This document shows positions 11,533 through 62,802 of a stretch of 64,000 bases of DNA, piece by piece (the first letter of the stretch is position 1; every line of letters starts with the position of its first letter). The stretch lies in NCBI GenBank assembly GCA_963828125.1, contig CAWHDP010000002.1, positions 1,312,001 to 1,376,000 of the forward strand, given 5' to 3'. Under the pieces are notes generated by a model, which did no database searches, was not told the origin of the DNA, and was given only the letters and a program-made list of their open reading frames with translations. Both the position numbers and the translations under genes were made by a program. The stretch comes from an uncultured Chlamydiae bacterium. Its GTDB lineage: Bacteria; Chlamydiota; Chlamydiia; Chlamydiales; SM23-39.

Positions 11533-12270
11533 TTAGTTCAAATAAAGACTCTGACTATCCCCTTGAATAACCATAATAGACCCATGGGGAATACTTCTTG
11601 TACCTTCTTCTTCAGAATAGTTCCCAAGATAAAAATTCAAGAGTTTGAAAAGCCCCCCATGAGTGACGATGACTATTCTTTCTCCTAAATGAGCCGCACA
11701 AATCTCTTTGATCACAGGCACCATTCTGCATGCCATGTCGACCTTGCTCTCTCCTCCTTCTCCGCAAGGAAAGAAAATCTCTTTTTCAGGAGGTAGGCTG
11801 TCATAGAATCGAAAATGGGATTCTTGGACATACTGCTCTTTTGTATATCCTTCAAATTTCCCGTGAAATTCACCTTTCAAACGCGAATCTCCATATAGGG
11901 GACAGTTCTCTAATTTGTCTTGTATGATATGAGCTGTTTCAAGAGCTTGTTGAAGAGTGGAAGAATAAATTGCAGAAACAGACTGGTCGAGGAGCAGTTC
12001 TCCAGTTTTTTGCGCCTCATTTCTACCTTTTTCATTAAGTGGAATATTATTCCACCCTTGCAACCGACTTATTTCCGTCCAATCTGTACTGCCTTGATTC
12101 ACAAGATAAATCGTACAGACTTCTTTATTGACAGAGATTTCTCGAATGCCGAGTTTTTCTTTCAATACATGAGGGCTAGTGTTAAAAAACTCAGCACTCT
12201 GCGGAAAGGCAAAGTCTCCTTCGTCTGCTTGGAGAGACCCGAACAGCAAGCAAAAAATTAATAAAATCAT
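11533..12270 (-). CDS. Histidine-phosphatase-fold protein with signal-like N-terminus; RHG motif replaced by NQG
   Basis: IYLVNQGSTDW, RLQGW..IPLN..G, IYSS.L..A..TA, GES, VTHGG. Probable start ATG 12270 (MILLIFCLLFGSLQA). Confidence 0.8.
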   Translation of the reverse strand: MILLIFCLLFGSLQADEGDFAFPQSAEFFNTSPHVLKEKLGIREISVNKEVCTIYLVNQGSTDWTEISRLQGWNNIPLNEKGRNEAQKTGELLLDQSVSAIYSSTLQQALETAHIIQDKLENCPLYGDSRLKGEFHGKFEGYTKEQYVQESHFRFYDSLPPEKEIFFPCGEGGESKVDMACRMVPVIKEICAAHLGERIVIVTHGGLFKLLNFYLGNYSEEEGTRSIPHGSIMVIQGDSQSLYLN

Positions 12271-12414
12271 CTTTATTCCGTCAGCATGCAACATAGGTTT
12301 TCTTAATTGGCATAGGCCTTCATGAGGCCCTATTTTGCCTGTAGTTGCAACTTTTTGCAACTTCGAGAAGAGGAAGGTAGGGCAGAACTTTCGACTAAAC
12401 GCCTGAAAAATCCA

Positions 12415-45938: not shown

Positions 45939-46862
45939 ATGAAAGAAGAGCAAACCCCTCCCCGCATGGCGCTCGGCATCGCCCTTTGTCTTCTGGCCTA
46001 TGTCTTTTTTGTGACGGCCAGTTCGCTCGTTTGGAGTTTTAAAACGACTTTCCCCACGATCCAGATTATTTTTTTTCAAAATTTCGTCAGCCTCCTCTGC
46101 ATCTTGCCGCTCGCCCTTCGAAAAGGGGTGAAGCGGCTGAAGACCTCTTTTTTCCCCATCCATCTACTGAGAGACCTATCGGGCGTCCTGAGCTACTACC
46201 TCTACTTTGTCGCGATCCGCTACCTCGATTTAACCGATGCGACAACACTCAATTACACGGCCCCGTTTTTTGTGCCGATCGTTTGGTGGATCTGGATGCG
46301 GGAAAGAATTGGACTCCACATCTGGTGGTCGATCATCGTCGGCTTTATCGGCGTGGCCGTCATTTTGAACCCAACCAAGCAAATTTTTCAAGAAGGATTT
46401 ACATTCGGCCTCTGTGCGGGAATTTGTTCTGCGATCGCATTCACCGCCCTCCGGGTGCTCAATTTAAAAAGAGAGCCGATGAGCCGAACCCTTTTCCTCT
46501 ATTTTCTCTTCGGCGCCGTGATCAGCGCCCCCTTTGCCGCCATTTATTGGGTTCACCCAAGCGGGCTCCAATGGCTAAAGGTTGTCTGCGTAGGCCTTGC
46601 AACAGTGGTCGCACAAATGCTCCTCACCGTCGCCTACCGTTTTGGGACCGCGTCGTTTCTCTCCCCGCTCGGATACTCGACAGTCATCTACGCAGGCTTG
46701 AGCAGTTGGCTTTTGTTCCATATCCCCCTCGGATTCCGCTCGATTCTAGGGACTGTCCTCATCGTCATTGGGGGGACGTTGACCTATATTTTAAAGAAAA
46801 AGCCTGAAAAGCTCTCCGAAACATTCGAAATCCCCGAGCCCAAAGAGAAGCCCCCGCTTTAG
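45939..46862 (+). CDS. DMT/EamA family transporter
   Basis: About 10 TM segments; A..LNYTAPFF, GF.GV..IL.P. Confidence 0.85.
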   Translation: MKEEQTPPRMALGIALCLLAYVFFVTASSLVWSFKTTFPTIQIIFFQNFVSLLCILPLALRKGVKRLKTSFFPIHLLRDLSGVLSYYLYFVAIRYLDLTDATTLNYTAPFFVPIVWWIWMRERIGLHIWWSIIVGFIGVAVILNPTKQIFQEGFTFGLCAGICSAIAFTALRVLNLKREPMSRTLFLYFLFGAVISAPFAAIYWVHPSGLQWLKVVCVGLATVVAQMLLTVAYRFGTASFLSPLGYSTVIYAGLSSWLLFHIPLGFRSILGTVLIVIGGTLTYILKKKPEKLSETFEIPEPKEKPPL

Positions 46863-47191: not shown

Positions 47192-47623
47192 ATGAATCGG
47201 ATTTTTCTCATCATTCTCTCTGTGACGACCTCCCTTCTTTACGCTGAAGATTTCAGCTTTCGAGGAAAGCACTTCGTCGCAAGCTACATGGATTGCGACA
47301 TCAGAGCTTTAACCGATCTCGATAGTCTCATCCGCGCCATGGATGGCGCAGTCCGCGCATCAGGAGCCACGATCCTCGATCAAACTCCCTATGTTTTTCC
47401 GCCCAATGGCCTCACCATCGTCTACCTTTTGTCTGAAAGTCACGCGAGCCTCCACACTTACCCCGAGCATGGCGCCTGCTTTGTCGACCTGTTCACTTGC
47501 GGCGATCTCTGCTCACCGGAACGTTTTGACGAGGCCCTCCGGAATTACCTACAGCCAAAAACCGTGAATGCGCGTCTTTTTTTGCGCGCTGACGAAGTCC
47601 AAGAGATTGTCCATTCTCCATGA
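47192..47623 (+). CDS. speD: S-adenosylmethionine decarboxylase proenzyme family (class 1B), with signal-like N-terminus
   Basis: GKH, F.PNG.T, LSESHASLHTYPE (pyruvoyl cleavage site), DLFTCG. Probable start ATG 47192. Confidence 0.85.
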   Translation: MNRIFLIILSVTTSLLYAEDFSFRGKHFVASYMDCDIRALTDLDSLIRAMDGAVRASGATILDQTPYVFPPNGLTIVYLLSESHASLHTYPEHGACFVDLFTCGDLCSPERFDEALRNYLQPKTVNARLFLRADEVQEIVHSP

Positions 47624-48546
47624 AAAAATTCTCTATCCTCCTTTTATTAGCCCTCCTATCGGCCCTTTCCGGGGAGCTGTTGTACTATCTGAAGGACGGC
47701 TTTAGCGCAAGGCGAGTGCAAAGCTTGCCCTATCCAGTGGCAGAAGGGTGGGACACGGATGCTGGAGGAGCGCTCGAACAGCCCTTTCGCTATATCGGAC
47801 GGGGCAGGCAGTGCTTTGCCTTCAGTAGCGCTGACAGGAAATACGTCCTCAAACTCCCTCGCACAGACATCTACAAAACCCCATTTTGGGTTCGCTCGCT
47901 GCCCCTCCCCTCTTATCGGGCCCGCCTGGAAGCAGACCACCTCGAAAGGGAGACATTTATTCTCAACAGCTTCCAACTCTCGGCAAGCGAACTCAAGCGC
48001 CAGACAGCTCTTATAGCCCTCCACCTCGGCCAGAGCGCCCCCAGCGGCAAGGAGCTCACCCTGATCGACGCCCTCGGCTGCACCCACCGGTTCCCCCTCC
48101 ACAAAACCCCCTTCATCCTCCAACTCAAACAACCCATTTTGATGCAATCATTTCAAACCGCTCTTGCCAAAGGAGATCAGAAAGAGGCCGAGCGGATCCT
48201 CGACGCTCTTCTCGCAGTCATTGTTGAAAGGGCAAGCCAAGGGATCCTCAATCGAGACCGCTCCTTTCTCCGCAACTATGGTTACGATGGGCAAACGGCC
48301 TACCAAATCGACGTCGGCAGTTTCTTCCGGAAACCCGATTTGACCCCCTCCGACGCCTACGAAAAATCGATCCGCGATTCGACAGACCCCATCCTCGAAT
48401 GGCTCGCCCAAAACGCCCCACACATGCGCGATTATTTCAGCGCGGCGGTTCAAGAAAACGGACTGTCTCTGAAGCAGAGAGCAAAAACGGGCTCATGGCC
48501 AACAAAACCTGGCCACCGCTCCCATCGCAGTACCCCCGACTCCTAA
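47620..48546 (+). CDS. Protein-kinase-like fold hypothetical protein with N-terminal signal/anchor
   Basis: YIGRGRQC (Gly loop), YVLK (Lys), NRD....RNYG (catalytic-loop-like), IDVG (DFG-like). Confidence 0.55.
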   Translation: MKKFSILLLLALLSALSGELLYYLKDGFSARRVQSLPYPVAEGWDTDAGGALEQPFRYIGRGRQCFAFSSADRKYVLKLPRTDIYKTPFWVRSLPLPSYRARLEADHLERETFILNSFQLSASELKRQTALIALHLGQSAPSGKELTLIDALGCTHRFPLHKTPFILQLKQPILMQSFQTALAKGDQKEAERILDALLAVIVERASQGILNRDRSFLRNYGYDGQTAYQIDVGSFFRKPDLTPSDAYEKSIRDSTDPILEWLAQNAPHMRDYFSAAVQENGLSLKQRAKTGSWPTKPGHRSHRSTPDS

Positions 48547-48794: not shown

Positions 48795-49640
48795 TCACCA
48801 GTTAAAATCTTGTTCATAGCCGAGCTCAATGAGCAGATCTCCGATCTCCTCTTTCACCGCGGTTTTATGTTCCTCTTTAAAATACTCCTTCCATGCACCG
48901 ACTTTCCCTTTGAAAAAACTATACCCTTTTCCAAAGTTCGATTTATATACGTTGTATAGATCCTGATCGGAAATATCGACTTTTAGCGCAGCTGCAATTT
49001 TCTTTAGTTCTCCCAAAGCGTCCAAGTCTGTAGCGGCGCCGCCGTGATTCCCCATCAGCTTGCTGAAATCCAAGGTGCAGCATGCCGGCGAATGGACCCA
49101 ACCCTTGAAATAGAGCGTCTCCCTTCTTAAATCCTTCCGGATCATGAGAAGCAACTTCTCGTCATCCGAAACAATCGACGCTAGCGATGGATCATTCAAA
49201 TGGATGTGTTTATAGTGGTTGAGTAACGATACGATTTGATCTCTTGGATCCCGTTTGATAAAAAAATTGATGCAGCTGTGTTCAAGAAGATAGTTTTCCA
49301 ATGTGACGGTAAAGGGTGCGTGCAAATGCAAGAACGTCCCATTTTTTTCGTTTTTGGCCCAGATCTGATCCATGGTTTTCCGGTTCCAGGGCGCCCGGCC
49401 GCTTGAAAAATAAATATCCTGAGGATCTTCAGTTAAGGTCTTATTCTCCGCTAAAAGTTTCGTCTCCTCTTGATATTTCTTCGCCCAAAAGACCTTCTTC
49501 CCTGTTAACGCAGTCAAAACGGGGATCAGCAAGTGGGTTCCTGTCTTGGGTTCCGTAAATAAAACAAAATTTTCAGACCACAACGATAGATGGACGCAAA
49601 TCGACGCCAATAATAGCGCCTTAAAAAAATTTAAACTCAT
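48795..49640 (-). CDS. PAPS-dependent sulfotransferase
   Basis: PKTGTH (5'-PSB), RDPRD..VS (3'-PB), FFKGKVGAWK; signal-like N-terminus. Confidence 0.88.
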   Translation of the reverse strand: MSLNFFKALLLASICVHLSLWSENFVLFTEPKTGTHLLIPVLTALTGKKVFWAKKYQEETKLLAENKTLTEDPQDIYFSSGRAPWNRKTMDQIWAKNEKNGTFLHLHAPFTVTLENYLLEHSCINFFIKRDPRDQIVSLLNHYKHIHLNDPSLASIVSDDEKLLLMIRKDLRRETLYFKGWVHSPACCTLDFSKLMGNHGGAATDLDALGELKKIAAALKVDISDQDLYNVYKSNFGKGYSFFKGKVGAWKEYFKEEHKTAVKEEIGDLLIELGYEQDFNW

Positions 49641-49646
49641 ACATTC

Positions 49647-50654
49647 TCACCTTTGTTCTTGTTGAAATTTGAGCATTCTGTGCATGGAGTCGATTTGGAG
49701 GAGTTGATCGGTCATCGAGAACCGAGTTTCGAAAATCCGGTGGGCCTCCTCCGCCATTTTCCACGCCATCTCAGGATCTCTCTGAATGTGGGCCATGTGT
49801 CCCTGGATTTGTCGATAGATTTCCTCTGAGGATTGGCTCGTGTCAACGTAAAACACAGCATCGCCAAATACCTCCTTTACAAAGGCGTTTTGATCCGAGA
49901 TAATCACAGCGGACGCTGCGGCTGCTTCGAAAATCCGCGAGGAGGGGATTTGAAACTTATTGTGGAGAGCAGAATGGAGAACGAGTACAATTCCGTGCCG
50001 TTGATAGGCTTTAATAACGGAAACGCCGTCAAAGCGCAGTTGTCCCATGTATCCGTCTCGAATCAGGTCGGGGTGGTGGTTGACGCCATAAAATTTTGTA
50101 AAGCCGCTTTGGCTGAGAAATTTATAGAGATTTTTATACTTGTCGCTCTTAGAGCGGTTGCTCCAAATAGGGAGGATCGTGGCGAGTTCGTTCAAAGCCA
50201 GTCTCTTGTAATGGATCGGCTGTAGAGTTGGATAAAAGGGTATTGTAGACAGCCGTCTGTTTTTGGACTGGAAGGTTTCGGGTTTGATAGTGAGTAAATA
50301 GGCGTCGTATTTTTCATAGAGGGGCAAGAGATATCCCTCCTCATCAAAAAAGCCAAAGGGGTGCAAGACAGCCATGTAGTTGCCGCAATCCGTTCTCAGG
50401 GGTTCGATATTGGGAATGAGGCAAAGGATCCAATCGAGGCGGTGGACGCGCTGAATGATCTTACCTCTATCTTCATCTAGGAAGACCCTCCAGCCGAGTT
50501 CTTCTGCCGCCCGTTTAATCCGCCATCCCAATTCTCTCTCTCCATAATAACTTTTGTCGCTGACGATTCCGATTGAAGTCACGGCCTGAACGCTGAGCTG
50601 GAGCAGGACGAAAAGAATGAGAAGAGATGGGCGAAGCCGACACATAAAGAACAT
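49647..50654 (-). CDS. GT-B-type glycosyltransferase-like protein
   Basis: C-terminal SSRIFEAAAA...IISD motif typical of Glyco_trans_1_2-like domains; signal-like N-terminus ending in VQA. Confidence 0.65.
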   Translation of the reverse strand: MFFMCRLRPSLLILFVLLQLSVQAVTSIGIVSDKSYYGERELGWRIKRAAEELGWRVFLDEDRGKIIQRVHRLDWILCLIPNIEPLRTDCGNYMAVLHPFGFFDEEGYLLPLYEKYDAYLLTIKPETFQSKNRRLSTIPFYPTLQPIHYKRLALNELATILPIWSNRSKSDKYKNLYKFLSQSGFTKFYGVNHHPDLIRDGYMGQLRFDGVSVIKAYQRHGIVLVLHSALHNKFQIPSSRIFEAAAASAVIISDQNAFVKEVFGDAVFYVDTSQSSEEIYRQIQGHMAHIQRDPEMAWKMAEEAHRIFETRFSMTDQLLQIDSMHRMLKFQQEQR

Positions 50655-50778
50655 CCCTGACCTGGTTTCCTGAAGGATTCTAGAGATGTATAGAAATTAT
50701 TTCTACAAAAAGTTGAATATGGATCCCATTTTTTTATTTTTTTGAACTGGACATTGGCCAGTTGAATCTGACCAAGAT

Positions 50779-51576
50779 GTGTGGTATACGTCGACGTCCA
50801 AAAGGATGTTTCGGATGAGGTTATTGTTCTTGAGTTTTTTTCTCGTTTTCGGCCGAACGGCTCCTGCCGGCGAGAGTCCCGTCCGAGTGAAATTGTTTTG
50901 CTTGTTCACGCCCGAATTCCAAATTCTCTATGAGCGCTATTTTCTCCCGAGCATTCAGGATGATTTTGATGTGATTGTAAGAGAGTATCCTCAGGAGTGC
51001 CCTACAGGGGTCTATCGCTCCGAGGGGTGGGATAAAACCATGATCCATAAATTAGAGATGCTGCAGGACGCTGCCATTGGCTGTGCGGAGAATCAGGTTT
51101 TTATTTACGCAGACGTCGATATCATTTTTCTTAAACCGGCGCTGCCGGCGCTCTTAGAATGTTTGGGAACGAACGATTTTGTCGTGCAGCAAGGCTGGCC
51201 AAGGAGAGGTTTGTGCGCCGGACTGATCGTCCTACGAGCCAATGAGAAAACCTCAACATGGATCAAGAGAGCCCGCGCATTGCTGGAGAGAAAAATGTGT
51301 CCTGATGATCAAGTGGCCCTGCAAAGGTCATTGGAGAGTTTTCGAGAAGGGGAGATCTCGTGGGCGTTTCTCCCTTCCGAACAGTTTCCGAACGGGAGGC
51401 GAGTTTTAAAAGCCTATTCTCAGGAGAAAAACCAGCTCTATACAAGGGATTCTGAACTCGCTCTCGACGATTCGATTGTCCTGTTTCACGCCAATTGCTG
51501 CTTAGGGCTGGAAGATAAGTGCCATTTCTTAACGCGCGTCCAAGAAGAATATTTGAAAAATAGGTGTCATTTATGA
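50779..51576 (+). CDS. Nucleotide-diphospho-sugar transferase (GT77-like, GT-A)
   Basis: FIYADVDIIFL, CAG...LR, DDQ.AL, FHAN.....K; signal-like N-terminus (start likely ~50815). Confidence 0.75.
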   Translation: MWYTSTSKRMFRMRLLFLSFFLVFGRTAPAGESPVRVKLFCLFTPEFQILYERYFLPSIQDDFDVIVREYPQECPTGVYRSEGWDKTMIHKLEMLQDAAIGCAENQVFIYADVDIIFLKPALPALLECLGTNDFVVQQGWPRRGLCAGLIVLRANEKTSTWIKRARALLERKMCPDDQVALQRSLESFREGEISWAFLPSEQFPNGRRVLKAYSQEKNQLYTRDSELALDDSIVLFHANCCLGLEDKCHFLTRVQEEYLKNRCHL

Positions 51577-52379
51577 AGTGTTTTCTATCGATTGGGATAT
51601 TTTTACTTGCCTCTCTAGCTCCTTTGTTCACTTGTGCCGAGGAACTCCTCGACGTCGAGACACTGCCTCGCATGAGAACCAAACAGTACAGAATAGAGCC
51701 TTGGAAAAAAATTGTGGTTTTTTCAGCGCCGAGAACGGGCAGCTCCCTCCTTTATAATATCCTCCGATTCCTCTTTGAAAAAGATCAAAATCTATGGCGC
51801 CGCCATGATCAATTTTATCGAGGTTGCACGGTGGTAAAAACCCATAAGTACGCCGACGCGAGTGCAGTGGAAAGGGGCGATACATTCTTCGTGGTTCCGA
51901 TTCGGAACCCACTTCATGCGAGCATGTCGACCTATAGAATTCACTACCGGCCTATCGAGGTACTGCAGGATTTTTGTAAGAATCTCATCACCCGCCAGGC
52001 GGATCACCTCATGTTTGCTGAAACGTTGCAGATGAAAGGACAGAAAGTTGTGTTCCTCCGGTATGAAGATTTTGAAGATCATCCCGATTACGTGATGGAT
52101 TTTATTGAGGATCAGTTTCAGATCGCGATTTCTCCTCGCGACAGGGATCTGATTCGGAGAGGATATAGCCGAGAAAACATCTTTTTCTCGGTACAAGCCC
52201 TCCGAGATTTCGGGGAATTGCTGCCGATTTCTGGTTTTCACGGCAAACACGTCTCGTTGGAAAATTATACGATACCGGACGAGGCGATGTTTTGGCTCAA
52301 CTTCTATCTAGAAGGGGCAAAGCCGCTCTACAGAAAATATGGGTATTTCGGAGATGTGGATCCGGCTTACAGCAAATGA
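51564..52379 (+). CDS. Sulfotransferase-like protein
   Basis: APRTGSS..YN, VKTH, RNP...S, RYE; signal-like N-terminus. Confidence 0.75.
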   Translation: MSFMKCFLSIGIFLLASLAPLFTCAEELLDVETLPRMRTKQYRIEPWKKIVVFSAPRTGSSLLYNILRFLFEKDQNLWRRHDQFYRGCTVVKTHKYADASAVERGDTFFVVPIRNPLHASMSTYRIHYRPIEVLQDFCKNLITRQADHLMFAETLQMKGQKVVFLRYEDFEDHPDYVMDFIEDQFQIAISPRDRDLIRRGYSRENIFFSVQALRDFGELLPISGFHGKHVSLENYTIPDEAMFWLNFYLEGAKPLYRKYGYFGDVDPAYSK

Positions 52380-53531
52380 CACAGGAGGGTAATTTCTGTT
52401 CATTTTCTCTGGGTATACGTCTCGATAAAGAAAAGACTCGCTCGAATAAAATTGGATCTCCACAGGCGCTTCCCCTATGCAATCCCTCGGGATCTTCCCG
52501 CAATACAGGGAAAAGGGGGCCCCATTTTTCTTAAAAATCTCGAACTCCACGCCATTGACCCTCACTCTGGGGATTACCTCCGGCTTCAGGGGCTGGGCCG
52601 TGAAAGAGAGATTGTAATCTCTTCCCGCCTCCAGAGAAAAATAAATGATCGCAGGTTGGTTCATGACCCACCTGTAGGTGGAGTACACCCCAACGTGTTC
52701 TCCGGTCGACTCTCGGTAGCTCCACCATTTTCCGTTGAGAGGCTGATCGAAGCGGTAGTCTACCTCAGTTGTTTTCGTTAAGAGAGAGTCAAAAGATTTT
52801 GTCCTTAATCGGTATCCGTTTCTTTTCATTTGCAGATGAGTCTTGGCATACTGATACAATTCTAGATCGAGGAGATTGATCTGCCTGATCTCCTTGAGCA
52901 GCTCCTCGGATACAGGCTCCTTTTGAGTAAAGTTCACTCTGGGAATGTCCTGCCGCTCCAAAGAAATGCCAAGTCGCTGAAAAAGAGCGGCAACATCATC
53001 TGCAAAGCGATCGAAAAAGATCACGCAGTCGATCCTTCGCAAGCTCTCCTTTGCGCTTTCCAAAAGCTCCCTTCCCTCTAAGAGCGGGTTAGCCGCCAAA
53101 TGTCTGCAATGGGCATTGTCGATCAAACCACTATTATATTTCGAAACAGGCGAGTCTCTTTCCCTCATCACCGACTCGAGATTGGGAAACTCGGGATTTT
53201 GGAATTTCTTCGCACGGAGAAAAGAGAGATATCTCTCGACAGGATCCCTCAAAATGGTTACTTTGAAAGCCGCTTCAAAATCGGGGTCTAAGTCCTTGCA
53301 GAGCCAATAAGGAAGATGGCCTGAAACAAGCTCTTGAACAACGGGCGCCTTTGCCGTCTTCCGGTTCCGATAGGGATAGATCTCCTCCGCGCTGACTTGC
53401 ATTTCTAGGAGAGTGCGGAGCGTCGTCCCGGCTGTCTTGGGAATGTGTACAAAGTAGAGCCTAGACTCCAAGTCGAATGGCGTCCATCCAGCGAGAATCC
53501 ATAAACACCAAAGAGCTGTGAGCCGCATCAT
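52308..53531 (-). CDS. Sulfotransferase family 2 protein
   Basis: FVHIPKTAGTT, SGH, TILRDPVERYLS, N.LDLELY..A; extra C-terminal beta-rich domain. Confidence 0.88.
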   Translation of the reverse strand: MMRLTALWCLWILAGWTPFDLESRLYFVHIPKTAGTTLRTLLEMQVSAEEIYPYRNRKTAKAPVVQELVSGHLPYWLCKDLDPDFEAAFKVTILRDPVERYLSFLRAKKFQNPEFPNLESVMRERDSPVSKYNSGLIDNAHCRHLAANPLLEGRELLESAKESLRRIDCVIFFDRFADDVAALFQRLGISLERQDIPRVNFTQKEPVSEELLKEIRQINLLDLELYQYAKTHLQMKRNGYRLRTKSFDSLLTKTTEVDYRFDQPLNGKWWSYRESTGEHVGVYSTYRWVMNQPAIIYFSLEAGRDYNLSFTAQPLKPEVIPRVRVNGVEFEIFKKNGAPFSLYCGKIPRDCIGEAPVEIQFYSSESFLYRDVYPEKMNRNYPPVSFAVSRIHISEIPIFSVERLCPF

Positions 53532-54346
53532 AAATCCGTTTTGAAGATTTTCAGATATTTTTCCCAGATGACCGGCGCTCTCTGCTCTAGATACGCATCG
53601 ATCGACGCAAGAACTTCTGGACTGATACCTTTGGTATAGTGGATAGCTTTGGGTCCTTCCGAGGCAGAGGAGCCGCCAAAGTTATGCTGGTGTTGATGTT
53701 TGTAGCTGTCGAGCAGCTTGGCGGCGTATAGCTGTTTATTCATCCTAAAATCGTCGAGATAGGCGGGCTCTTCGCCCATGAATGCAAGCAATCGGAGGAG
53801 GATTTCTTCGTCCCGCTCGATGAAATCCTCATAATAAAACATCATTCTGTTGTCGGGATCCCAGCTATCGTATACCTCGAACGCTTGCAAATAGCGTTCA
53901 AAAAAATCGCGAATGAATTCGGGATCCTCGATGACTGAGGCAGTGGAAGTCAGAAAAAACTTTCTAAACAGGAGTTCTTTGGGATTCCGCGTTAAGAAAA
54001 TGAGCTTGTTTTTATTCGATGGCAACTGGCGTAACTGATCAAAATCGCGGTGGGTTCGGTACAAAAGGGGTCTGTCCGTGATGAGCGGCAGGCCGATCCG
54101 ATTGTAAGAGGGGTGCGTCCTACATGAGTCTACAGGATTCAAAACTCGTCTTCCCCAGTGCAGCCACGAGATTGGCTTTCTTGTGATCGCCGTCAAGCTG
54201 CCAGTCACCCAATTCACTCCTGACTTGGGCGTAGTTAAAAAAATGACGGCGCCCTGGCTTTTTTCCAAACATTCAAAGTTGGGAATTTCTGAGCTGCATA
54301 GGGCGCCCATCGCAAGAAGAAACGAGATAATCGCCGTCCTGAGCAT
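53528..54346 (-). CDS. Sulfotransferase-like protein
   Basis: TPKSGVNW, RTH, TRNPKE, YEDF. Probable start ATG 54346 (MLRTAIISFLLAMGALC). Confidence 0.75.
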   Translation of the reverse strand: MLRTAIISFLLAMGALCSSEIPNFECLEKSQGAVIFLTTPKSGVNWVTGSLTAITRKPISWLHWGRRVLNPVDSCRTHPSYNRIGLPLITDRPLLYRTHRDFDQLRQLPSNKNKLIFLTRNPKELLFRKFFLTSTASVIEDPEFIRDFFERYLQAFEVYDSWDPDNRMMFYYEDFIERDEEILLRLLAFMGEEPAYLDDFRMNKQLYAAKLLDSYKHQHQHNFGGSSASEGPKAIHYTKGISPEVLASIDAYLEQRAPVIWEKYLKIFKTDL

Positions 54347-54410
54347 GGATGAGACCTCCAATTTTTTGAGGGCGATTGTACGAAAATTTTTTATTTCTAT
54401 CAAGAAATAT

Positions 54411-55256
54411 TCACCAATTATCGTCCTGCTCATAGCCCAGAGCGATTAAATGGGCCCCCAACTTTTCTTTGAAAGCTGCCTTATGAATCGGCTTAAAGGC
54501 GGCTCTCCATCCGCCGATTTTCCCTTGGCGGAAGGTGGTCTGATAGTGTTGAAAATTCCCTTGCCCAAACGGGTTTTCTTCGTCGCCATAGAGTCGGGAG
54601 GCAATGGCCTCCACTTCTAGGGCGGATAAAGGCGCGTTGATGTGCCTGGCGATTTTTTCGAGAGTCTGCAGTTGTTTTTCTATAGTTCCTCCTCCTTGGG
54701 GTCCCACGATATCTTCGTAGCGGCACACGAGGATCTGGGGATTTTTGACCAGGTCTGCAGCCTGCTTAGCCACTTTTTGGATCTCTAGATGCTGCTTGAT
54801 TCCTGGGGGAGCGAGTTGATAGTTTTGTTGAATGACAAAGAGGAGCTGCTCATCGAAAGAGAGGTGATTAAAGGCTTTTGTTTTGTTTGGATAGCCCGTG
54901 AATTCGGGCCAAATTCCCTTGCGCATTTGATAGACAATCGATACACAGACGTCGCGCAAATCGCGGATTCCTAAGATACGTTGAGTGAAAGAGGCGTCAT
55001 AAAATCGCAAGAGTTCTGAAGAGAGACAGCAATGGGTGTAAGGAAAGTGGCGGTGATGCAAGGTCTCCTGGATAGAAAGGGGTTCAAGATGCCAATGGGG
55101 AGTAAGTCCCGTCATAAAATAGAGGGCTTTGATCATCAGATGAGAACCCGATTTGGGGATTGTAAAAAGGGCGAACGGCAAGGGTTCTGGATGTTGTTGG
55201 GCAGAGAGGTTACATAGGAACACAAGGAGATGGACGGCGAGGAATTTTTTCAGCAT
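54411..55256 (-). CDS. PAPS-dependent sulfotransferase
   Basis: IPKSGSH, RDLRDVCVS, RYED, FRQGKIGGW; signal-like N-terminus. Confidence 0.88.
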   Translation of the reverse strand: MLKKFLAVHLLVFLCNLSAQQHPEPLPFALFTIPKSGSHLMIKALYFMTGLTPHWHLEPLSIQETLHHRHFPYTHCCLSSELLRFYDASFTQRILGIRDLRDVCVSIVYQMRKGIWPEFTGYPNKTKAFNHLSFDEQLLFVIQQNYQLAPPGIKQHLEIQKVAKQAADLVKNPQILVCRYEDIVGPQGGGTIEKQLQTLEKIARHINAPLSALEVEAIASRLYGDEENPFGQGNFQHYQTTFRQGKIGGWRAAFKPIHKAAFKEKLGAHLIALGYEQDDNW

Positions 55257-56694
55257 ATTGCACTCTTATTTTTTTACGTGATTTCATGAATACAAAGATG
55301 AGAATGGATGAGATAAAAAATACGATTTCGAATCGAAGATAGAGGCTCAACTTATTTTTGAAAGCAGAGAGCCAGTGGGCGATCCGTTCAGAAAAGTTGT
55401 CGGGAGTCACATCGTGGCAGTCCCGAAACCAGATGTTGGCCCATTGATGATTGGCAAAAGGTCTTGCTTCTGAATGAGGGGCAAATGTTCTATTTTTCAA
55501 AGGAAATACCCAGGAGGAGGGGAAAATGAGCGTAGAGCCCTCTTTAATATGTAAATCGACTCCGATTTTGAAGCTGTCGAAAGTTCGACCCAATGTCCGT
55601 AAGAGTACGGAGCTTTTGTCGTTGCAGGGGAAAAGATGTGTATAGAGATCCCAACGGTTGGCTATTTGATCCAAGGTCTCTTTTAAGATCGGATGACCGG
55701 GTTTAGAGCCGATCAAACAGTTGGTCACGATGACCGAATTTTCATCGAAAGCTCTTCGATGAAAGGGCTCCAAAGGGGCATAGAAGGAAAATTGACTATT
55801 CATCGATTCAAAGGAGCGGAAACACTCAATGTCATGATCGACATAGACTCCCCCTTCGTTGAAGAGAATCTGGCAGCGGAGCAAATCGGATTTTTCAGCC
55901 CAATTGGCGGCCTGAGAAAAATAGGGTTCCAGCGGTTCCAAGTCCAATTCGGACAAGAGATGTTTTTCCATGCCCGGAACAGGAAGAGGGCGGGACGGGT
56001 CGTCGGTCCAAAATTTGACAATCCAGCCGGGGTGGAGTTGGATCCAAGATTCGATATTTTTAATCGATTGTTTAGGAAAAGATCTTCCCCCCCAAATGAA
56101 GTGGAGGACGTGGGGAATTTTGGGTTTAATGGAGGGGGGGTGAGGCCCAGGGATGTAGTGTGAAAATAATGCACTGTACATTTGAAGAGAGATCTGGTCA
56201 TCTGCCGTGAGGGATGTAGGGCGACCGGTCTCATTCAGCTCGTAAAAATCGAGCGGTTCCCCTATTTTTTTTGGCCAGATTTTCTCGAGATTCCAGGGGA
56301 GTCCAAATACCAGGGATAGAGGAAGCGCATATTTTAAAACGGGTTTCCAGTACGAAGCGCCGCATTTGGCGCATAAGATTCCTAGGGCGAGGCTATTCAA
56401 GAGGGTGAAGGCGACGAGCTGCCAACAAACCCTTCTGACTTTTTTGAGCTGGGCCATAAAGGCGCTCTCTTCGAGGGTTTTTTTCACTTTAGCCCCATGG
56501 ATGTCATACAAAGCTCGGGTCAAGGTAGGAAGGGACTTAAACTTCCAAAAGCAGACTCCAGAGAGAGGAGAGGGAGAAATGTCGGTCATAAAGACCTGAT
56601 CCCGGGAGGATAAAATCGGCGGGCAAAATTTTTTTCGGCTCGTGTAAAAGACCGGGCATGCAAGCGAGAATCGATGTTCCGTCGGAAGAGACAA
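55210..56694 (-). CDS. GT32-family (DXD) glycosyltransferase with TM segments
   Basis: IPHVLHFIWGG, KSDLLR..IL..EGGVYVDHD, HP.L. True start is uncertain (possibly ATG 56589). Confidence 0.8.
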   Translation of the reverse strand: MSLPTEHRFSLACPVFYTSRKKFCPPILSSRDQVFMTDISPSPLSGVCFWKFKSLPTLTRALYDIHGAKVKKTLEESAFMAQLKKVRRVCWQLVAFTLLNSLALGILCAKCGASYWKPVLKYALPLSLVFGLPWNLEKIWPKKIGEPLDFYELNETGRPTSLTADDQISLQMYSALFSHYIPGPHPPSIKPKIPHVLHFIWGGRSFPKQSIKNIESWIQLHPGWIVKFWTDDPSRPLPVPGMEKHLLSELDLEPLEPYFSQAANWAEKSDLLRCQILFNEGGVYVDHDIECFRSFESMNSQFSFYAPLEPFHRRAFDENSVIVTNCLIGSKPGHPILKETLDQIANRWDLYTHLFPCNDKSSVLLRTLGRTFDSFKIGVDLHIKEGSTLIFPSSWVFPLKNRTFAPHSEARPFANHQWANIWFRDCHDVTPDNFSERIAHWLSAFKNKLSLYLRFEIVFFISSILIFVFMKSRKKIRVQYAEKIPRRPSPCVPM

Positions 56695-57052
56695 ATCCCC
56701 TCTCTTCGCGAACGAGAGATTCTAGCGGTTTGCAGCAAATGAGATCGGGATGAACCCAGACGCCCCCTTCCCTTTCTAAAATCGCGTCTCTTGCCGTTTG
56801 CTCATCTCTCCAGGCGGGATCGATCGGACATAAAGCGGCCCGTTTTGTCTGGAGAGAGGCGTGGGTCCAGATTTTAAACGCATATTTGGGATGGGCGTTT
56901 TGCCAAGATTCGAGAGCATAGAGCTCCTCCTGTGCAAAGGGGGCGCTTTCCAGCCGAATCCAGTGGAAGACCCTCGGGATATCGGAGAGCTCTGCGCACT
57001 CGGCAGCGCCCGCACAGAAAAGGGACACGAGCGCCAAAAAGATTTTTTTCAA
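56537..57052 (-). CDS. Short, degenerate GT32-like protein with signal-like N-terminus
   Basis: IPRVFHWI, SW...HP.Y..KIW, IL.REGGVWVHPD (DxD changed to HPD). Confidence 0.55.
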   Translation of the reverse strand: MKKIFLALVSLFCAGAAECAELSDIPRVFHWIRLESAPFAQEELYALESWQNAHPKYAFKIWTHASLQTKRAALCPIDPAWRDEQTARDAILEREGGVWVHPDLICCKPLESLVREERGFVSSDGTSILACMPGLLHEPKKILPADFILPGSGLYDRHFSLSSLWSLLLEV

Positions 57053-57059
57053 TGGTTGA

Positions 57060-57629
57060 TCACTCTTTAAGGCTTAACGTGCGATAAAATTCCGCGAATC
57101 GGACGGAGATCTCCTGAAGAGATTCTATCTCGGTCGCGAAGATGAGATCAGGACGCTCTGGCGGGTCATAGGGGGCGGAAATTCCCGTAAAATCTTGGAT
57201 CTCGCCCCGGAGCGCTTTGGCGTACATGCCCTTTACATCTCGTTGAATACACGTATTCAATCCAGTTTTGACATAGACGAGATAAAAATCGGCGCCTCCG
57301 CTTTCGATCAATTGCCGTACTCTGTCTCTTTGGGTTTCCAAAGGGCTGATCGTCGTGACGACGACCGTTCCGGCCTCATCCAGCTTTGCAAGGGCCAATT
57401 GGGCGATTCTTTCCAAATTCTTCTGTCTGTCTTCAGGAGAATAGCCTAAGTCTTTATTGACCGTTTTTCGAATTACGTCTCCGTCCAAATGGACAAATTC
57501 AGGAAATGCCTTGCAGACCGATTCGGCAATGGTCGTTTTCCCTGAGCAAGGAAGTCCTGTGAACCAAAAGACTTCTTTGGCATTTGCAGCTGCAATGAAA
57601 GAGAGAAAAAGGAAGAGGTATTTTGGCAT
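57060..57629 (-). CDS. cysC: Adenylyl-sulfate (APS) kinase with signal-like N-terminus
   Basis: WFTGLPCSGKTT, LDGD.IR, DLG.S..DR..N, ISP, RDVKGMY.KA..G.I..FTGI.APY. Confidence 0.92.
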   Translation of the reverse strand: MPKYLFLFLSFIAAANAKEVFWFTGLPCSGKTTIAESVCKAFPEFVHLDGDVIRKTVNKDLGYSPEDRQKNLERIAQLALAKLDEAGTVVVTTISPLETQRDRVRQLIESGGADFYLVYVKTGLNTCIQRDVKGMYAKALRGEIQDFTGISAPYDPPERPDLIFATEIESLQEISVRFAEFYRTLSLKE

Positions 57630-57660
57630 TGGCGATCCTTTTTTTGTTGTCCCACAATAT

Positions 57661-58848
57661 CTAAAGAATTGATTTTTTGTCCATTGAGGAATTCAGCTTG
57701 TCTGAGTGAAAAACTTCGCGAGCGCTCTTAAAAAAAAGTAGGCTCGCCGATATGCTGACGATTCCAAAGACTGCAAATCCGAGCGAATACACTTTCCACG
57801 TTCCGAAGATTCCCAAGATCTGCGGAATGAGGCCTGCGCCGATCACGAACGAACTCGATGCGAAGAGCGAGACGGCGCTCGCTTTTCTCTCTTTCGGCGT
57901 GATTTTTGAGATGCCAGCATAGACCAGGGTCGTCAATCCGATTGCGAGGGCTGATTCGATGCAAAGGGCGACGACGGCGGTTTTTGGATTCAGAGCGCCC
58001 AGAAGGAGGGTGAAACTTCCCGCAAGAAAGAGAAAGGCTGTCAGCGATGCGGCAAGGCCCCAAACATCGAGGATCCACCCCCCTAGGAGAGAGGAGAGGA
58101 GGCCAAGGAGTCTAGAAAAACTGAGAGCCGTATAGAGAATCTCGTCGGACCATCCTTGCTCGAGGATGAAATAGGCAGGAGAGATCGAGTAAATCCCCAT
58201 GTTCAGCCCCATGGCAAGGGCATGGAGGGCCAACATCCACCGATTTATTTTGGAAGAGAGAAAATCCCGTATGTAGTCAAAAGAAGGGAGCCCCCCTTTT
58301 TCATCGCGATTTTTCGCGGTTCGTTGGAAGACAAGTCCCAGCAAGCCAAGACAAATGCCTAAACCGAAGAAGAAAGAGCGGTAGGAAGCGGTTTGGCCGA
58401 TCCAGTTGCCGAAGAAGGGGGTTGTAATCATCGCAAGAGTTTGGAAGGAAGAAAACGAGGCGACGGCCCTTCCTAATTTCTCTTGGGGAATGATGGATCC
58501 TAAATAGGCGATCGCAGAAGGGAGGAAAAGACCCGACAGCCCGCCGAGAGAGAAAAGAAAGATTCCGAGAAAATACCGATTTCCAACCATGGGAAAAAGG
58601 GAGAGGAGGCAACCCGAGCCGAGAATCGAGAGGCTGATTACTTTGTGGTGGCTGATTTTCGCCGACACGAACTGCGAGCTGAATAATGAAAGTCCGAAGC
58701 CGAACGCGAGGAGCAGATAGAGGGCGCCGAGACCCTGCGGCGAGAGGAGGTACTCGTTTGAAAGCCTGCCCGCGAGCATCGGAAATACCATCCGGCCGAT
58801 GACATTGAGGAAATAAAGAGCGCCGAGAAGAAGGAGGGGGCCGATCAT
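57661..58848 (-). CDS. MFS transporter
   Basis: About 12 TM segments; GGW..D.WG loop motif. Start ATG 58848 overlaps the cysN stop. Confidence 0.82.
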
Positions 58849-60074
58849 TCTAGAATGACTCCAGCTCCGAGAATCTCGCAGGAGTCGACAAGGACAAAAC
58901 GTGTCGTATCGAGATAGAGAGGGGAAATATCGAACGCGACCGGCCTGACGGTCCGGATGACGCATTCTACGATATCATAGGCCTTGGCGGCAGCCTTCTG
59001 TTTGGATCCCAAGGTGGCCGAATCATAGATAGCGAGGATTTTTTCAATCGCACATCCTGTTTTGCTCGTGTGGATCCGAAAGATATATTTAGCCCCTTCC
59101 AAAAGGGGATTGCGGCCGATAAAAAAAAGACGAACCTTGAACTGGCTTCCAACAAGAGGGGGCGGAGCGCTGCTATGAGAAATCAGTTCGCCTCGGTCGA
59201 CAAAAAGAGACTCTTCTAAGGTAAAGCCCGTTGCAAAACCTACCCTCGGGGGATCTACATCGGACTCGATGGAGGCGACAACGCCCTCTTTTCCCGACGG
59301 GCTAAAGAGAAGCCGGTCCCCTTTTTTGAGGATTCCTGCACTCACCGTGCCGCTATAGATTCTTCGGGAGTCTCCCCTTTTCGTGAAGCGATAGATGGCC
59401 TGGAGCGGCATCCTCAGATCGGGCCCTCGAGTTTTGTCCACGTGGGAAAAAGAGCGGATCGATTCCCAAAGCGATTTGCCCTTGTACCAAGGCATATTCG
59501 GAGAGGGGCCTAAAAAATGATCCCCCTGTTTCGCGCTGAGAGGGAGGATCTCGTGCGGCGTGATTTGATGGGAAGCGAAGGCTGTAGAAATCGCCTTTGC
59601 AATGGCGAGGTAGGCTGGTTCAGAATAATCGACCTGATCCATTTTATTCACAACAACAACGATCTTCGGAATCTGCAAAAAAGAGAGCAAAAAAAGGTGG
59701 CGGAGGGTGTTGTCCTTGATCCCCTCTTTTGCATCGATGATCAAGAGGGCGATATCGGCCGTCGAGGAGCCGGTGATCATGTTCTTGATGAAGTCGAGAT
59801 GGCCTGGGGTGTCGATAAAGAGGTACTTGCGCCCCTCTGAGCGGATGAAATAGCGAGCCGCGTCGATCGTAATTCCTTGCGCTTGTTCTTTCTCAAGAGC
59901 GTCAGTGAGGAAGGCGTATTCAAAATCTTTGGCGTGCCGTTCGCAATAGCTCTTGAGCTGTTCTAATTTTCCATCGGGCAGGGAGTGGGTGTCGACAAGA
60001 AGCCTCCCTAAAATAGAACTTTTGCCGTGATCGACGTGTCCCACAAATGCGACATTCACTTTATGTTCTTCCAT
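58845..60074 (-). CDS. cysN: Sulfate adenylyltransferase GTPase subunit, no fused CysC
   Basis: [30 protein letters not shown]. Start ATG 60074. Confidence 0.9.
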
Positions 60075-60078
60075 GTTG

Positions 60079-60960
60079 TTACATGTACCCCTCTCTGCGT
60101 AGTTTTTCCAATGTGCCCCGATCTTCGCGATCCTGCGCGCGCCCCGAGCGCTCCGCAATACTGGAGAGTTTTCCCGTCGCAAGCTCCTCGATCACCTCGT
60201 CGACGCAGCTCGCGCTCGAAGAGATCGGACGGGTGCAAGGAGCGCAGCCGAGCGAGCGGTAGCGGAGATGATTCCCCTGGTTGAAGTAGAGGGAACTTAC
60301 GGGAATTTTTTCTTTTTTGATATAGCGCCAAACATCCAGTTCCGTCCAGTCGAGAAGAGGATGAATCCGCATGTGGGTTTTTGGAGGGAAATCGATCTGA
60401 TGATAGCCCCAGAGCTCCGGGGGCTGGTTTTCGACATTCCACTCTCCCTCGACGCCGCGGGGGGAAAAATATCTCTCTTTCGAGCGGCTCGCTTCCTCGT
60501 CAGCGCGAATCCCGAGGATGAGAGCCTGATAGGGAGTTTTGTCGGGATCGACCGCATACCGCCCAGACACAGGGTCGAATTTGTACCGATCGAGCCTTCC
60601 GGTTAAGACCCCTTCTAAAGCCTCGGTTTTTAATTTCTTGCAGCATTGGAGCATGGTCGCCTTCCCGTTGGGGAAGGTGTCCCCTTTGTCCAAAATGTCT
60701 TGGTTTTTCCCGTAGACGATCGGCAATCCCCATTGGGCGGCGAGCTGATCGCGGTACTCGATCATCTCGGGCAATTTATACCCGGTGTCGATGTGAACGA
60801 GAGGGAAAGGGATGTGTCCAAAAAAAGCCTTGAGAGCCAATTTGACTAAGACCGTGCTATCCTTGCCGACCGACCAAAGCATGGCCAAATTAGGAAAATG
60901 GGCGTATGCCTCTCGAAGTAAATAGATGCTTTTATTTTCTATTTTCTCCAGATGATCCAT
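60079..60960 (-). CDS. cysD: Sulfate adenylyltransferase subunit 2
   Basis: SVGKDS, HIDTG, R.DEE.SR.KER.FS.R, WTE.DVW.YI, RSLGC, REGY. Confidence 0.93.
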
Positions 60961-60963
60961 TGT

Positions 60964-61923
60964 TTAGGCTCTCTCCTGTTTAGCAGAACGGGTTCGGAAA
61001 AACATCGTCAAGATCGAAACAACGAGAAAAATGAGAATGGCGAGGATTGCACATTTTGAAAGGAGCGGATAGTTCATTTGCTTACAAATGACTGAAATCA
61101 GGCATCCCAATACAGCCAGGCCGAATTGGGTCTTAATTTTCTGATTCTGGACTCTACAAGCGGCGAGGACGCCGATTTTGGTCCCCATACTTGCGCCTAA
61201 AAACATGAGGGAGGCGGCGAGGAAATCGACCCTCCCCTTCATGGCATAGGAAGCGCCGCCGTATAATCCTGAGAGCATGACCTCAAAAAGATCTGTACCG
61301 ACAGCGATGAGGACAGGACAACCCATGAAATAAATCAAAGCGGGCAGGCGAAGAAGTCCTCCGCCGATTCCTAAAAACCCAGCGGCATATCCGGTGACTA
61401 ACCCGATCAGAATCGGGAGCCAGATGGAACAGCGGATGTTCGAGGTTTTGAAGAAGAAAAGAGGGCGAGGGAGAAGGAGATGGAGAGTCTTCGCCCATTT
61501 AACCTCTCCTTGTTTTCGATGGATAAACATGAGGAGAGTGATCAAAGAGAGGAGAATGATATAGACCCAGCGTAAAATCGATTCTACTTTATGAATTTTC
61601 TCGAGATACATCACGGTTTGCGCCCCCGCCTCGATTCCGACCACCGTTCCGATCAACATGAAAAAGGCCATAGGAAAATCTACATTATTCCTTCTGGCGT
61701 GATAGAAAGTTCCAAGCGCTCCTTTGCCTCCCATGTGGGCGATGTCGGTTCCCACGGCATAAGTCATGGGGAACCCGAGAATATTGAGGGCAGGCGTCAC
61801 AAGCCACGCTCCTCCGATGCCTAAAAAGGCGCTGACGACTCCTACGCCGAATCCGAGAAAGATGAGCGTGGGGATGAAAATATCGATATTTGCATAAGGG
61901 AGGGTGATCGTAAGAGAATCCAT
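60964..61923 (-). CDS. TauE/SafE (TSUP) family sulfur-compound transporter
   Basis: Two G.GGG/G.GGA...P...AVGT repeats; multiple TM segments. Confidence 0.88.
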   Translation of the reverse strand: MDSLTITLPYANIDIFIPTLIFLGFGVGVVSAFLGIGGAWLVTPALNILGFPMTYAVGTDIAHMGGKGALGTFYHARRNNVDFPMAFFMLIGTVVGIEAGAQTVMYLEKIHKVESILRWVYIILLSLITLLMFIHRKQGEVKWAKTLHLLLPRPLFFFKTSNIRCSIWLPILIGLVTGYAAGFLGIGGGLLRLPALIYFMGCPVLIAVGTDLFEVMLSGLYGGASYAMKGRVDFLAASLMFLGASMGTKIGVLAACRVQNQKIKTQFGLAVLGCLISVICKQMNYPLLSKCAILAILIFLVVSILTMFFRTRSAKQERA

Positions 61924-61944
61924 TCTGATCCTTTTTGTTTTTAC

Positions 61945-62802
61945 CTATTCAGCCTCGAACGAATGAAGCTCATAACGGCAATTCAGCAGCTCAACCGGCA
62001 GTTCAGGATTGAAATAGGTCGACCACAAACTGAGATTCGAACTCGTCCGAATGAGAAAGTCGCAGTTCGACAAGATGAGAGCATCGAGGAGAGCCTCTTC
62101 TCCGATTGCATAGGGAGATGGCGGTTGAGAGAGGTGAACTGGCATCACTCCGTTTGAGCGATGAGCGTCGTAGGCGATCACGGAGCCGGGGAACGTCTTT
62201 TTCATCTGGCTCAAGAAAGCAGCTTCGTCAGTGGCGACAAAAATCTTGTAGGGCTGATCGGACGGAATGTGGGCAAAGACGGCTCCGATCGCCTCTGCGT
62301 AGGGGACGCGCGGCGCCTCTTTTTCTTTGTCGGTTCCCCGATAGTGGATCCCTAAGACAAAAACATTCTGAAAGTGACGCTCGATAAATTGCGCGGCCTT
62401 TTCGAGGATCGACTGCTGGATATGAATATATTTTTTTACGAGGGCAGAAGCCTGCTCCCGCTTCAGTTGCCATCTGGCATGAATGGCAGCAAACGACCCG
62501 TCCTTGAATCGAGAGGCATTATTTTGAAGTGCGGAGATTTGGAGATGAATCGGCTCGAAGTAATAGTTCCACCAATTCGGGCCGTAATCGGGATCAAAGT
62601 AGAGTCCCGACTGACCAAAATCAACAGCCAGCTCCGAAAAGCCGCTGTAGGCCCCCATTTCATACAAGTGAAGGTGACCCAAAACGACATTGGCACAAGC
62701 AAACATCCCAGGCTCGCGAAGAGGCGAAGCGTCGATGATCAACAACTCGCCCGCCAGCAATCGCAGTGAGAACCCCAGCGCCACTAGATTCCTAAAAATC
62801 AT
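61945..62802 (-). CDS. NodZ-like alpha-1,6-fucosyltransferase (GT23-like)
   Basis: GMFA, N.W..YFEP, GIHYRGTDK, IFVATD, EAL.D..ILS.C..LI...SNLS. Confidence 0.75.
   Translation of the reverse strand: MIFRNLVALGFSLRLLAGELLIIDASPLREPGMFACANVVLGHLHLYEMGAYSGFSELAVDFGQSGLYFDPDYGPNWWNYYFEPIHLQISALQNNASRFKDGSFAAIHARWQLKREQASALVKKYIHIQQSILEKAAQFIERHFQNVFVLGIHYRGTDKEKEAPRVPYAEAIGAVFAHIPSDQPYKIFVATDEAAFLSQMKKTFPGSVIAYDAHRSNGVMPVHLSQPPSPYAIGEEALLDALILSNCDFLIRTSSNLSLWSTYFNPELPVELLNCRYELHSFEAE

Follow-up and report, generated by a model that had tools for sequence, protein, structure and literature searches.

A sulfation and glycosylation locus with predicted export leaders in an environmental chlamydia

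Gene content of the locus

The window analyzed here is a stretch of 64,000 nucleotides from an uncultured Chlamydiae bacterium (assembly GCA_963828125.1, contig CAWHDP010000002.1, positions 1,312,001 to 1,376,000). Its positions 48795 to 62802 hold a locus for sulfation and glycosylation, with five sulfotransferases (ST1 to ST5), several glycosyltransferases and the enzymes that make the sulfate donor 3'-phosphoadenosine 5'-phosphosulfate (PAPS) by way of adenosine 5'-phosphosulfate (APS). Ten of the enzymes, including the APS kinase CysC, begin with a short leader resembling an export signal, which suggests that transfer reactions, and probably PAPS synthesis itself, take place outside the cytoplasm.

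Gene identities were assigned with Pfam and NCBIfam. The gene content listed in a first-pass annotation of this DNA (five sulfotransferases, glycosyltransferases, a NodZ-like enzyme, cysD, cysN, cysC, a TauE and a major facilitator superfamily (MFS) transporter) was borne out. On the minus strand, a predicted NodZ/FUT8-like (GT23-type) fucosyltransferase (61945..62802; PF05830, E 1.7e-6), with leader cleavage around residue 17, is followed by a TauE/TSUP-family membrane protein (60964..61923; PF01925), which we infer to be the sulfate importer for CysDN. Next are CysD, the leaderless, cytoplasmic small subunit of ATP sulfurylase (60079..60960; NF003587 above cut-off), and CysN, its leaderless GTPase subunit (58845..60074; NCBIfam). 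The cysN stop overlaps the start (ATGA) of a 12-helix MFS carrier (57661..58848; PF07690), a candidate APS exporter. CysC (57060..57629) matches TIGR00455 and PF01583 above cut-off, has an intact P-loop and the LDGD and RDxKGxY motifs, and carries a 17-residue Sec-type leader. The gene order tauE-cysD was also found in genomes G131, G133, and G366.

The GT32-family protein (PF04488; 55210..57052, minus strand) consists of a leader, a degenerate first domain, one or more hydrophobic segments, a DxD domain and a C-terminal transmembrane segment with a basic tail. It had been annotated as two genes. At window position 56601 the contigs of runs X1 and X2 both have one base fewer than the window, and in an 85% identical relative (L200) GT32 is a single open reading frame of at least 595 residues; the two frames are therefore one gene split by a one-base assembly error. 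A match of GT32 to the TcdA/TcdB toxins was rejected, being a 25-residue Pfam match below cut-off that reflects the shared DxD motif.

Beyond GT32 the minus strand encodes ST5 (54411..55256; Pfam), with a predicted fold like that of cytosolic sulfotransferases (SULTs), ST4 (53528..54346; PF00685), the start of which at 54346 is preceded by a GGAGG site, and ST3 (52308..53531; PF03567), which has an extra C-terminal domain and the weakest of the ten leaders. On the plus strand lie a GT77-like glycosyltransferase (50806..51576; PF03407) with a DVD motif and ST2 (51564..52379), which scores below the Pfam cut-off and has both PAPS motifs. The locus ends, again on the minus strand, with a GT-B-like glycosyltransferase (49647..50645; PF13524) and ST1 (48795..49640; Pfam), a paralogue of ST5. 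All of these carry leaders. The 5'PSB and 3'PB loops are kept in all five sulfotransferases, with a divergent 3'PB in ST4, and the DxD motif is kept in GT77 and GT32. Promoter and terminator scans gave results no better than the chance level.

The genome is 2.37 Mb in size and 95% complete, and most of the window was found in soil metagenome runs, all from one study, and the assembly may have come from one of these runs. It encodes four full NTT/TLC translocases and two secretins, one of them a 1361-residue protein of the type II secretion system type. Since homologues of the window proteins are labelled Chlamydiota or Simkaniaceae in their source records, and because of the translocases and secretins, the organism is an environmental chlamydia.

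Leaders on the modifying enzymes and the APS kinase

Leaders were called with our own heuristic for the n-, h-, and c-regions of signal peptides, and export is predicted from this heuristic only. Ten of the 12 soluble enzymes of the locus passed (the five sulfotransferases, GT77, GT-B, GT32, the NodZ-like enzyme and CysC), with n-regions of +1 or +2, uncharged runs of 6–16 residues and cleavage at residues 14–22, and CysD and CysN failed. This is the pattern described in the first-pass annotation, the four quoted leaders of which were all found; that CysC carries a leader too had not been singled out. Genome-wide, the heuristic passed 316 of 1974 called genes when at most one further transmembrane segment was allowed. 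The binomial chance of ten out of ten leaders at the locus is about 1e-8, a figure in which neighboring genes are not independent. BamA, Pal, Tsp, autotransporters, and outer-membrane proteins were recovered as well.

Several observations weigh against reading the leaders as export signals. Four of 93 leaderless CysC homologues were false positives, and among 184 flagged genes scanned with Pfam (out of 253 outside the window with a score of 4 or more) at least nine encode cytoplasmic enzymes. Moreover, nine of the ten leader genes have GTG, TTG, or ATG codons downstream of the annotated start, and several of these lie behind the leader; in CysC no start codon was found between the leader and the P-loop. 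Two refuting conditions were named at first pass, true starts downstream of the leaders in orthologues and leaders that are membrane anchors holding cytoplasmic catalytic domains, and as far as they could be approximated from sequence neither of them refuted export: unlike Golgi-style type II anchors, the leaders have uncharged cores of 6–16 residues and a predicted cleavage site, and as judged from the sequence they are too short to be anchors. In GT32, the C-terminal transmembrane segment is followed by KSRKK. By the positive-inside rule this would place the DxD domain outside.

Orthologues were also compared, a check proposed at first pass, and leaders were kept for every enzyme checked. 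Among 120 CysC homologues leaders were present in 24 of the 31 closest and in 2 of the 89 more distant ones, the leaderless proteins beginning 2–10 residues before the first strand, i.e., at the predicted N-terminus of mature CysC. Position -1 is occupied by Ala in 16 and by Gly in two of 18 aligned CysC leaders; Leu occupies -3 in 10 of the 18, which is less typical for signal peptidase I. Median identity is 23% in the leader compared to 50% in the domain. Given this and the fixed Ala or Gly at -1, the leader appears to be kept as a property and not as a sequence. For the NodZ-like enzyme 79 of 120 homologues passed the heuristic and many others were leader-bearing by eye. For ST5 a readable motif was found in 125 of 150 representatives, of which 93 passed, a further 12 were hydrophobic, 11 had no leader and 9 were too short. 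In other chlamydial genomes orthologues of ST1 to ST4, GT-B, and GT77 were mostly leader-bearing, and those of CysD and CysN were leaderless save for one false call on the first strand of CysN. In G045, orthologues of ST3, GT77, and ST2 are co-directional neighbors, all with leaders; in G342, a leader-bearing GT-B orthologue adjoins an ST1 orthologue and a leader-bearing kinase. The closest homologues of the MFS carrier, CysC, and the NodZ-like enzyme lie on equally long contigs (63,129 and 28,000 bases). Because the leaders are short, have positive n-regions and Ala or Gly at -1, and are kept in orthologues, and because CysC has no internal start, action of the enzymes outside the cytoplasm is well supported by sequence.

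In the 400 Chlamydiota genomes searched there were 65 APS-kinase matches (E < 1e-10). Leaders were found in 40 of the 51 proteins for which N-termini were read, 39 of them by eye; the other is G407, where the match is the tail of a frame-split fusion with a leader-bearing first half. The 14 matches outside this count comprise three truncated at contig ends and eleven weaker ones, most of which are short and which probably have no leader, so that the actual proportion may lie closer to 40 of 62. Most of the leader-bearing kinases are Sat-CysC fusions with intact QTRNxxHxxH motifs and, as far as the motifs tell, complete PAPS synthases. In a quick IQ-TREE phylogeny (101 rows, SH-aLRT support only, midpoint root) leader-bearing rows fell into two groups, a stand-alone or nucleotidyltransferase-fused lineage that includes the window and a Sat-CysC lineage, the two being set apart by starred branches with leaderless rows from archaea and Nitrospira. 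We read this quick tree as at least two gains of kinase leaders, because the rows between the two lineages are leaderless and non-chlamydial. With leaders in two kinase lineages, on CysC and on Sat-CysC fusions, PAPS itself, and not only the sulfated product, is probably made outside the cytoplasm.

Nine genomes have a leader-bearing kinase without a working sulfurylase domain, and six of these (G000, G131, G366, G090, G100, and G156) hold cysD, cysN, and the MFS gene. In G366 the leader is kept on a fusion with a decayed Sat half, and in G131 it is kept although the Sat half is lost, which would be expected had APS synthesis passed to CysDN and the kinase stayed outside. Two results fit this less well: in G295 and G326, which have leader-bearing kinases, no CysD, CysN, or Sat was found, and no leader-bearing phosphatase for 3'-phosphoadenosine 5'-phosphate (PAP) was found, the single PF00459 gene being leaderless. 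In the whole genome CysD is the only match to PF01507 and there is no match to PF01077. The absence of cysH and cysIJ, noted earlier for the window, therefore holds genome-wide as far as these two families tell, and suggests that PAPS serves sulfation.

Two further candidates were set aside. The Sat domains of G145 and G248 looked dead by motif, scored strongly with PF01747 and were not counted as kinase-only, and the C-terminal tails of longer CysN orthologues, by eye decayed kinase domains, were negative with our own profile and with NCBIfam. When genome contigs and metagenomes were scanned with CysC, most of the kinases retrieved were leaderless and non-chlamydial, and L200 and L201 alone were of use. 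In four loci (L010:17084-18049, L169:7726-8694, L171, and L173) a leader-bearing APS kinase is joined to a small nucleotidyltransferase domain with an HxGH motif, which may be a minimal ATP sulfurylase. In L184 (G295; 8927-12164) a purine/methylthioadenosine phosphorylase and an acireductone dioxygenase, both with leaders, adjoin a leader-bearing APS kinase.

The MFS carrier, acceptors and sugar donors

An exported kinase fed by cytoplasmic CysDN requires a carrier, and since the kinase is exported this carrier would move APS and not PAPS. The MFS protein had been proposed as an APS/PAPS carrier; its link to cysN and cysC is real and it stands as a candidate for APS, which does not extend to PAPS or to an exclusive role. 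Both its best PDB profile match and its best fold match are the glucose-6-phosphate exchanger SLC37A4 (PDB 9w1p and 21np; E 2e-15, template modelling score 0.86), and R19 in helix 1, invariant in the alignment together with R246 in helix 8, is aligned with R28 of SLC37A4. An anionic phosphate ester is therefore a plausible substrate. Identity to SLC37A4 is 16%, the invariant R246 in helix 8 is a further difference, the second conserved basic residue of the exchangers (helix 7; K240 in SLC37A4) aligns with N216, and the NCBIfam PgtP score is far below cut-off; by sequence the protein is not a member of the OPA family, and the comparison stands for how it may work, not for membership. Nor does it have the DMT/SLC35 fold of PAPS transporters. 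A search of the ESM Atlas placed it among MFS clusters of Thermodesulfobacteriota, which gave no clue to the substrate.

The locus-type CysD clade was found in 8 of 401 genomes, seven of which have the MFS gene. The order cysD-cysN-MFS is present in G000, G366, G090, G100, and G156 and broken in G091, and in G131 MFS-cysC lies beside tauE-cysD. The single CysD genome without the MFS gene is G133, where neither the kinase nor two sulfotransferases show a leader; this is one very AT-rich genome, in which the start is uncertain.

The carrier may well be unrelated to APS, for which we see a chance somewhat short of even: it would be a core carrier of anions or sugar phosphates next to which cysDN had been inserted, the enzymes still being exported, and APS would leave through an NTT or EamA carrier, or the MFS protein would return PAP, AMP, or phosphate. 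The MFS gene was found in 26 of the 35 genomes of family f31, of which 22 gave no CysD match and have it always before hemH, so that APS export cannot be its dedicated role in all genomes. The gene is also intact where cysDN is broken (G091) or missing (G096), and is present in G301 without cysD or kinase. Outside f31 the picture is different, since it was found in only 4 of 365 genomes, three of which have cysD, cysN, and a leader-bearing kinase. The overlap of cysN with the MFS start in two families, and G133, where the carrier and the leaders are absent together (with the reservation on starts), also speak for a functional link. The cysN-coupled MFS protein is thus a fair candidate for an APS exporter, with the chances about evenly balanced. 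In G301 (L327:6377-8794) the MFS gene reads in frame into an RsmB/NusB methyltransferase gene, which is either a true fusion or an assembly error.

With respect to acceptors, the sulfation had been ascribed to glycans at first pass, and none of the sulfotransferases could be tied to one. ST3 belongs to the carbohydrate-sulfotransferase family PF03567 and travels with GT77 and ST2 in G045. Such likeness was not found for ST1 and ST5, neither by profile nor by fold. Cytosolic small-molecule SULTs ranked first for both, and the ST5 model (pLDDT 90) matches them. Like SULT7A1 (5x2b), SULT2A8 (7eov), SULT2A1, and SULT1E1, ST5 and ST1 keep the 5'PSB, the 3'PB and the C-terminal RxGxxGxW; they differ in having an N-terminal leader and 15–18% identity. 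Small-molecule or lipid acceptors are therefore possible for ST1 and ST5, judging from these models. No acceptor, polymerase, or export gene lies within the locus, which speaks against the mechanism proposed below.

The NodZ-like enzyme scores just under the PF05830 cut-off and has NodZ (2hhc, E 4e-6) as its best PDB match; the fold family and the H-x-R motif (HYRG) fit a predicted GT23/NodZ fucosyltransferase. The genome gave neither a gmd match above cut-off nor a fucose pyrophosphorylase (fkp), yet it encodes leader-bearing GT23-like and GT11 enzymes; this points to host donors. Among 120 genomes searched, gmd went unmatched in 7 of the 15 that encode a NodZ-like homologue, so there the fucosyl donor would be host-made or a different one. 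Of 15 Gmd loci fetched, 12 were read and four had a leader (L460, L462, L463, and L464, in G149, G045, G163, and G161).

Proposed mechanism and possible export of other metabolic enzymes

The explanation to which we lean, at slightly better than an even chance, is a module for sulfation and glycosylation that an energy-parasitic chlamydia exports by Sec and fuels from its host; it would act in the periplasm, and PAPS synthesis would be divided between the two sides of the inner membrane. TauE would import sulfate and CysDN would make APS in the cytoplasm. APS would then cross the inner membrane, the cysN-coupled MFS protein being the best candidate, and exported CysC would convert it to PAPS with host ATP reaching the periplasm, a pool on which the NTT translocases draw. 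The exported sulfotransferases and glycosyltransferases would decorate an envelope or secreted acceptor, and GDP-fucose-type donors would be taken from the host.

The enzymes might travel further, by type II secretion or vesicles after Sec, to the inclusion lumen or the host cytosol and act there as metabolic effectors on ATP, APS or PAPS, and nucleotide sugars of the host, with host or bacterial molecules as targets and possibly sterols or phenolics for ST1 and ST5. We regard this as rather unlikely, with a chance too large to neglect. The resemblance of ST5 to cytosolic SULTs fits it, the secretins provide a route, and C. trachomatis gives precedents both for Sec plus type II delivery (CPAF, HtrA, CT311, and CT795; PMC6717882) and for lumenal glycogen synthesis on host UDP-glucose (PMC4829429). 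Supply by the host would also account for leader-bearing kinases where no sulfurylase was found (G295 and G326) and for leader-bearing sulfotransferases in genomes without an APS-kinase match (G114 and G361). However, GT32 has a C-terminal inner-membrane anchor, and once past the outer membrane, APS from the cytoplasmic CysDN would be diluted. It is improbable, on the other hand, that the leaders do not serve export at all, being tethers or internal starts, and that the locus performs ordinary cytoplasmic sulfation of lipopolysaccharide or capsule. This is the standard bacterial model according to two reports (PMC8205485 and PMC7356697). The donors all normally belong to the cytoplasm, CysDN is located there and is co-transcribed, the dTDP-rhamnose genes (rml) are found at a distance of 4 kb, and most of the genes have internal GTG or TTG codons. 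Such a model fits poorly with the conservation of uncharged cores, positive n-regions and Ala or Gly at -1, with the missing internal start in CysC, with leaders that recur in independent kinase lineages and, in 4 of 12 relatives read, on Gmd, and with the known envelope proteins that the heuristic recovers. Genes for a flippase, Wzy, or an ABC exporter are also missing from the locus.

The periplasmic module can be compared with known systems. Sulfation and fucosylation in the Golgi employ carbohydrate sulfotransferases (PF03567), FUT8/GT23, GT77, and GT32 enzymes, the PAPS transporters SLC35B2/B3 and nucleotide-sugar carriers. In both cases donor-dependent transferases of the same glycosyltransferase families would face the non-cytoplasmic side and need a membrane carrier. 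Golgi enzymes, however, are type II membrane proteins supplied with PAPS finished in the cytosol or plastid by an SLC35 carrier, whereas the leaders of the locus look cleavable, its APS kinase appears exported and its linked carrier is an MFS protein. Among bacteria, rhizobial nodPQ/nodH/nodZ form a sulfation cluster. As in such clusters, genes for PAPS synthesis, sulfotransferases, and glycosyltransferases are grouped at the locus and no sulfate assimilation is needed. Further examples are the Synechocystis xss synechan cluster (PMC8205485) and the Pontiella cluster (PMC7356697). According to the first of these papers, the repeat unit is built and modified cytoplasmically and then flipped (PMC8205485), while the locus has leaders and no Wzx, Wzy, or ABC genes. 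In C. trachomatis, GlgA and GlgB make glycogen in the lumen with the host carrier SLC35D2, i.e., chlamydial nucleotide-sugar chemistry takes place outside the cytoplasm on host donors as proposed here; GlgA and GlgB have no signal peptide, use type III secretion and involve neither sulfur chemistry nor an exported kinase, unlike the locus (PMC4829429). In titles and abstract openings, with subscription papers and supplements outside this scope, neither PAPS synthesis nor transferases were described as exported in chlamydiae. Every enzyme family at the locus is known, and the placement by Sec signals of donor synthesis and transfer outside the bacterial cytoplasm is not a described kind of system.

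To our knowledge, textbooks grant the bacterial periplasm neither usable ATP nor activated donors and confine PAPS synthesis to the cytosol or plastid. Export signals across the phylum on APS kinases and on whole PAPS synthases would contradict this for energy parasites. We tentatively suggest, as a possibility with somewhat less than half a chance, that in environmental chlamydiae the periplasm is a host-fuelled biosynthetic compartment in which PAPS is finished, a solution chosen at least twice, and that the MFS protein is the first bacterial APS exporter. Host ATP, S-adenosylmethionine (SAM), and nucleotide sugars would then drive exported kinases and transferases, and the MFS protein, an APS carrier of a new kind, would link cytoplasmic CysDN to exported CysC. 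A sulfated or fucosylated coat is possible, which may mimic protist hosts or modify them, and periplasmic glyco-engineering could make use of sulfotransferases and PAPS synthases in soluble, secreted form.

The proposed compartmentalized pathway outside the cytoplasm thus finds support in the leaders as far as the site of action goes, and not as a self-contained, organelle-like pathway: the locus is one case of a genome- and lineage-wide trait. A canonical adenylate kinase (G000:C2:381058-381786, L018) has a signal-peptide-like or anchor leader, which is clear in 23 of 26 relatives read from several families (loci L020-L048; two doubtful, one masked; 30 fetched, of which four were unmatched by motif). 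A second, divergent adenylate kinase at C2:204487 is leaderless. In analogy to mitochondrial AK2, the leader suggests a compartment with ATP. Leaders were also found on a spermidine-synthase-like protein (by eye) and a cyclopropane fatty-acid synthase (G000:C2:97962-98861 and C2:1021354-1022532), and on Nudix, HIT, and HAD enzymes. SAM-dependent chemistry may thus be exported as well, to judge from these leaders.

Two other islands were noted. The first (G000:C2:1239345-1261569; L369 and L370) comprises about 20 leader-bearing genes, among them GT25, Methyltransf_24, STELLO, GT92, GT2, and a pyruvyl transferase, together with exported proteins of a collagen-like type, which are conceivable acceptors for glycans. 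The other, the third island in all (G000:C2:994251-1004611; L363 and L364), encodes leader-bearing GT2, GT6, and GT11 enzymes and proteins without assignment.

The locus is bounded by rml-pgeF-EamA-speD genes on one side and by a transposase-rich stretch on the other. SpeD, S-adenosylmethionine decarboxylase (47192..47623, plus strand; PF02675), carries a leader (heuristic score 5.4), as does its orthologue in G342. The EamA/DMT carrier (45939..46862, plus strand; PF00892) has orthologues near a leader-bearing kinase in G342 and G366 and is a rival candidate for cofactor transport. Window positions 47620-48546 encode a leader-bearing protein with no Pfam match and four genomic paralogues, kinase-like by eye. 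Positions 1-30220 are an integrated mobile element of lower GC content with an integrase, primase-like and DUF3987-type proteins, type III restriction-modification genes and insertion sequence elements; within it lies a leader-bearing histidine-phosphatase (PGM-like) gene (11533-12291).

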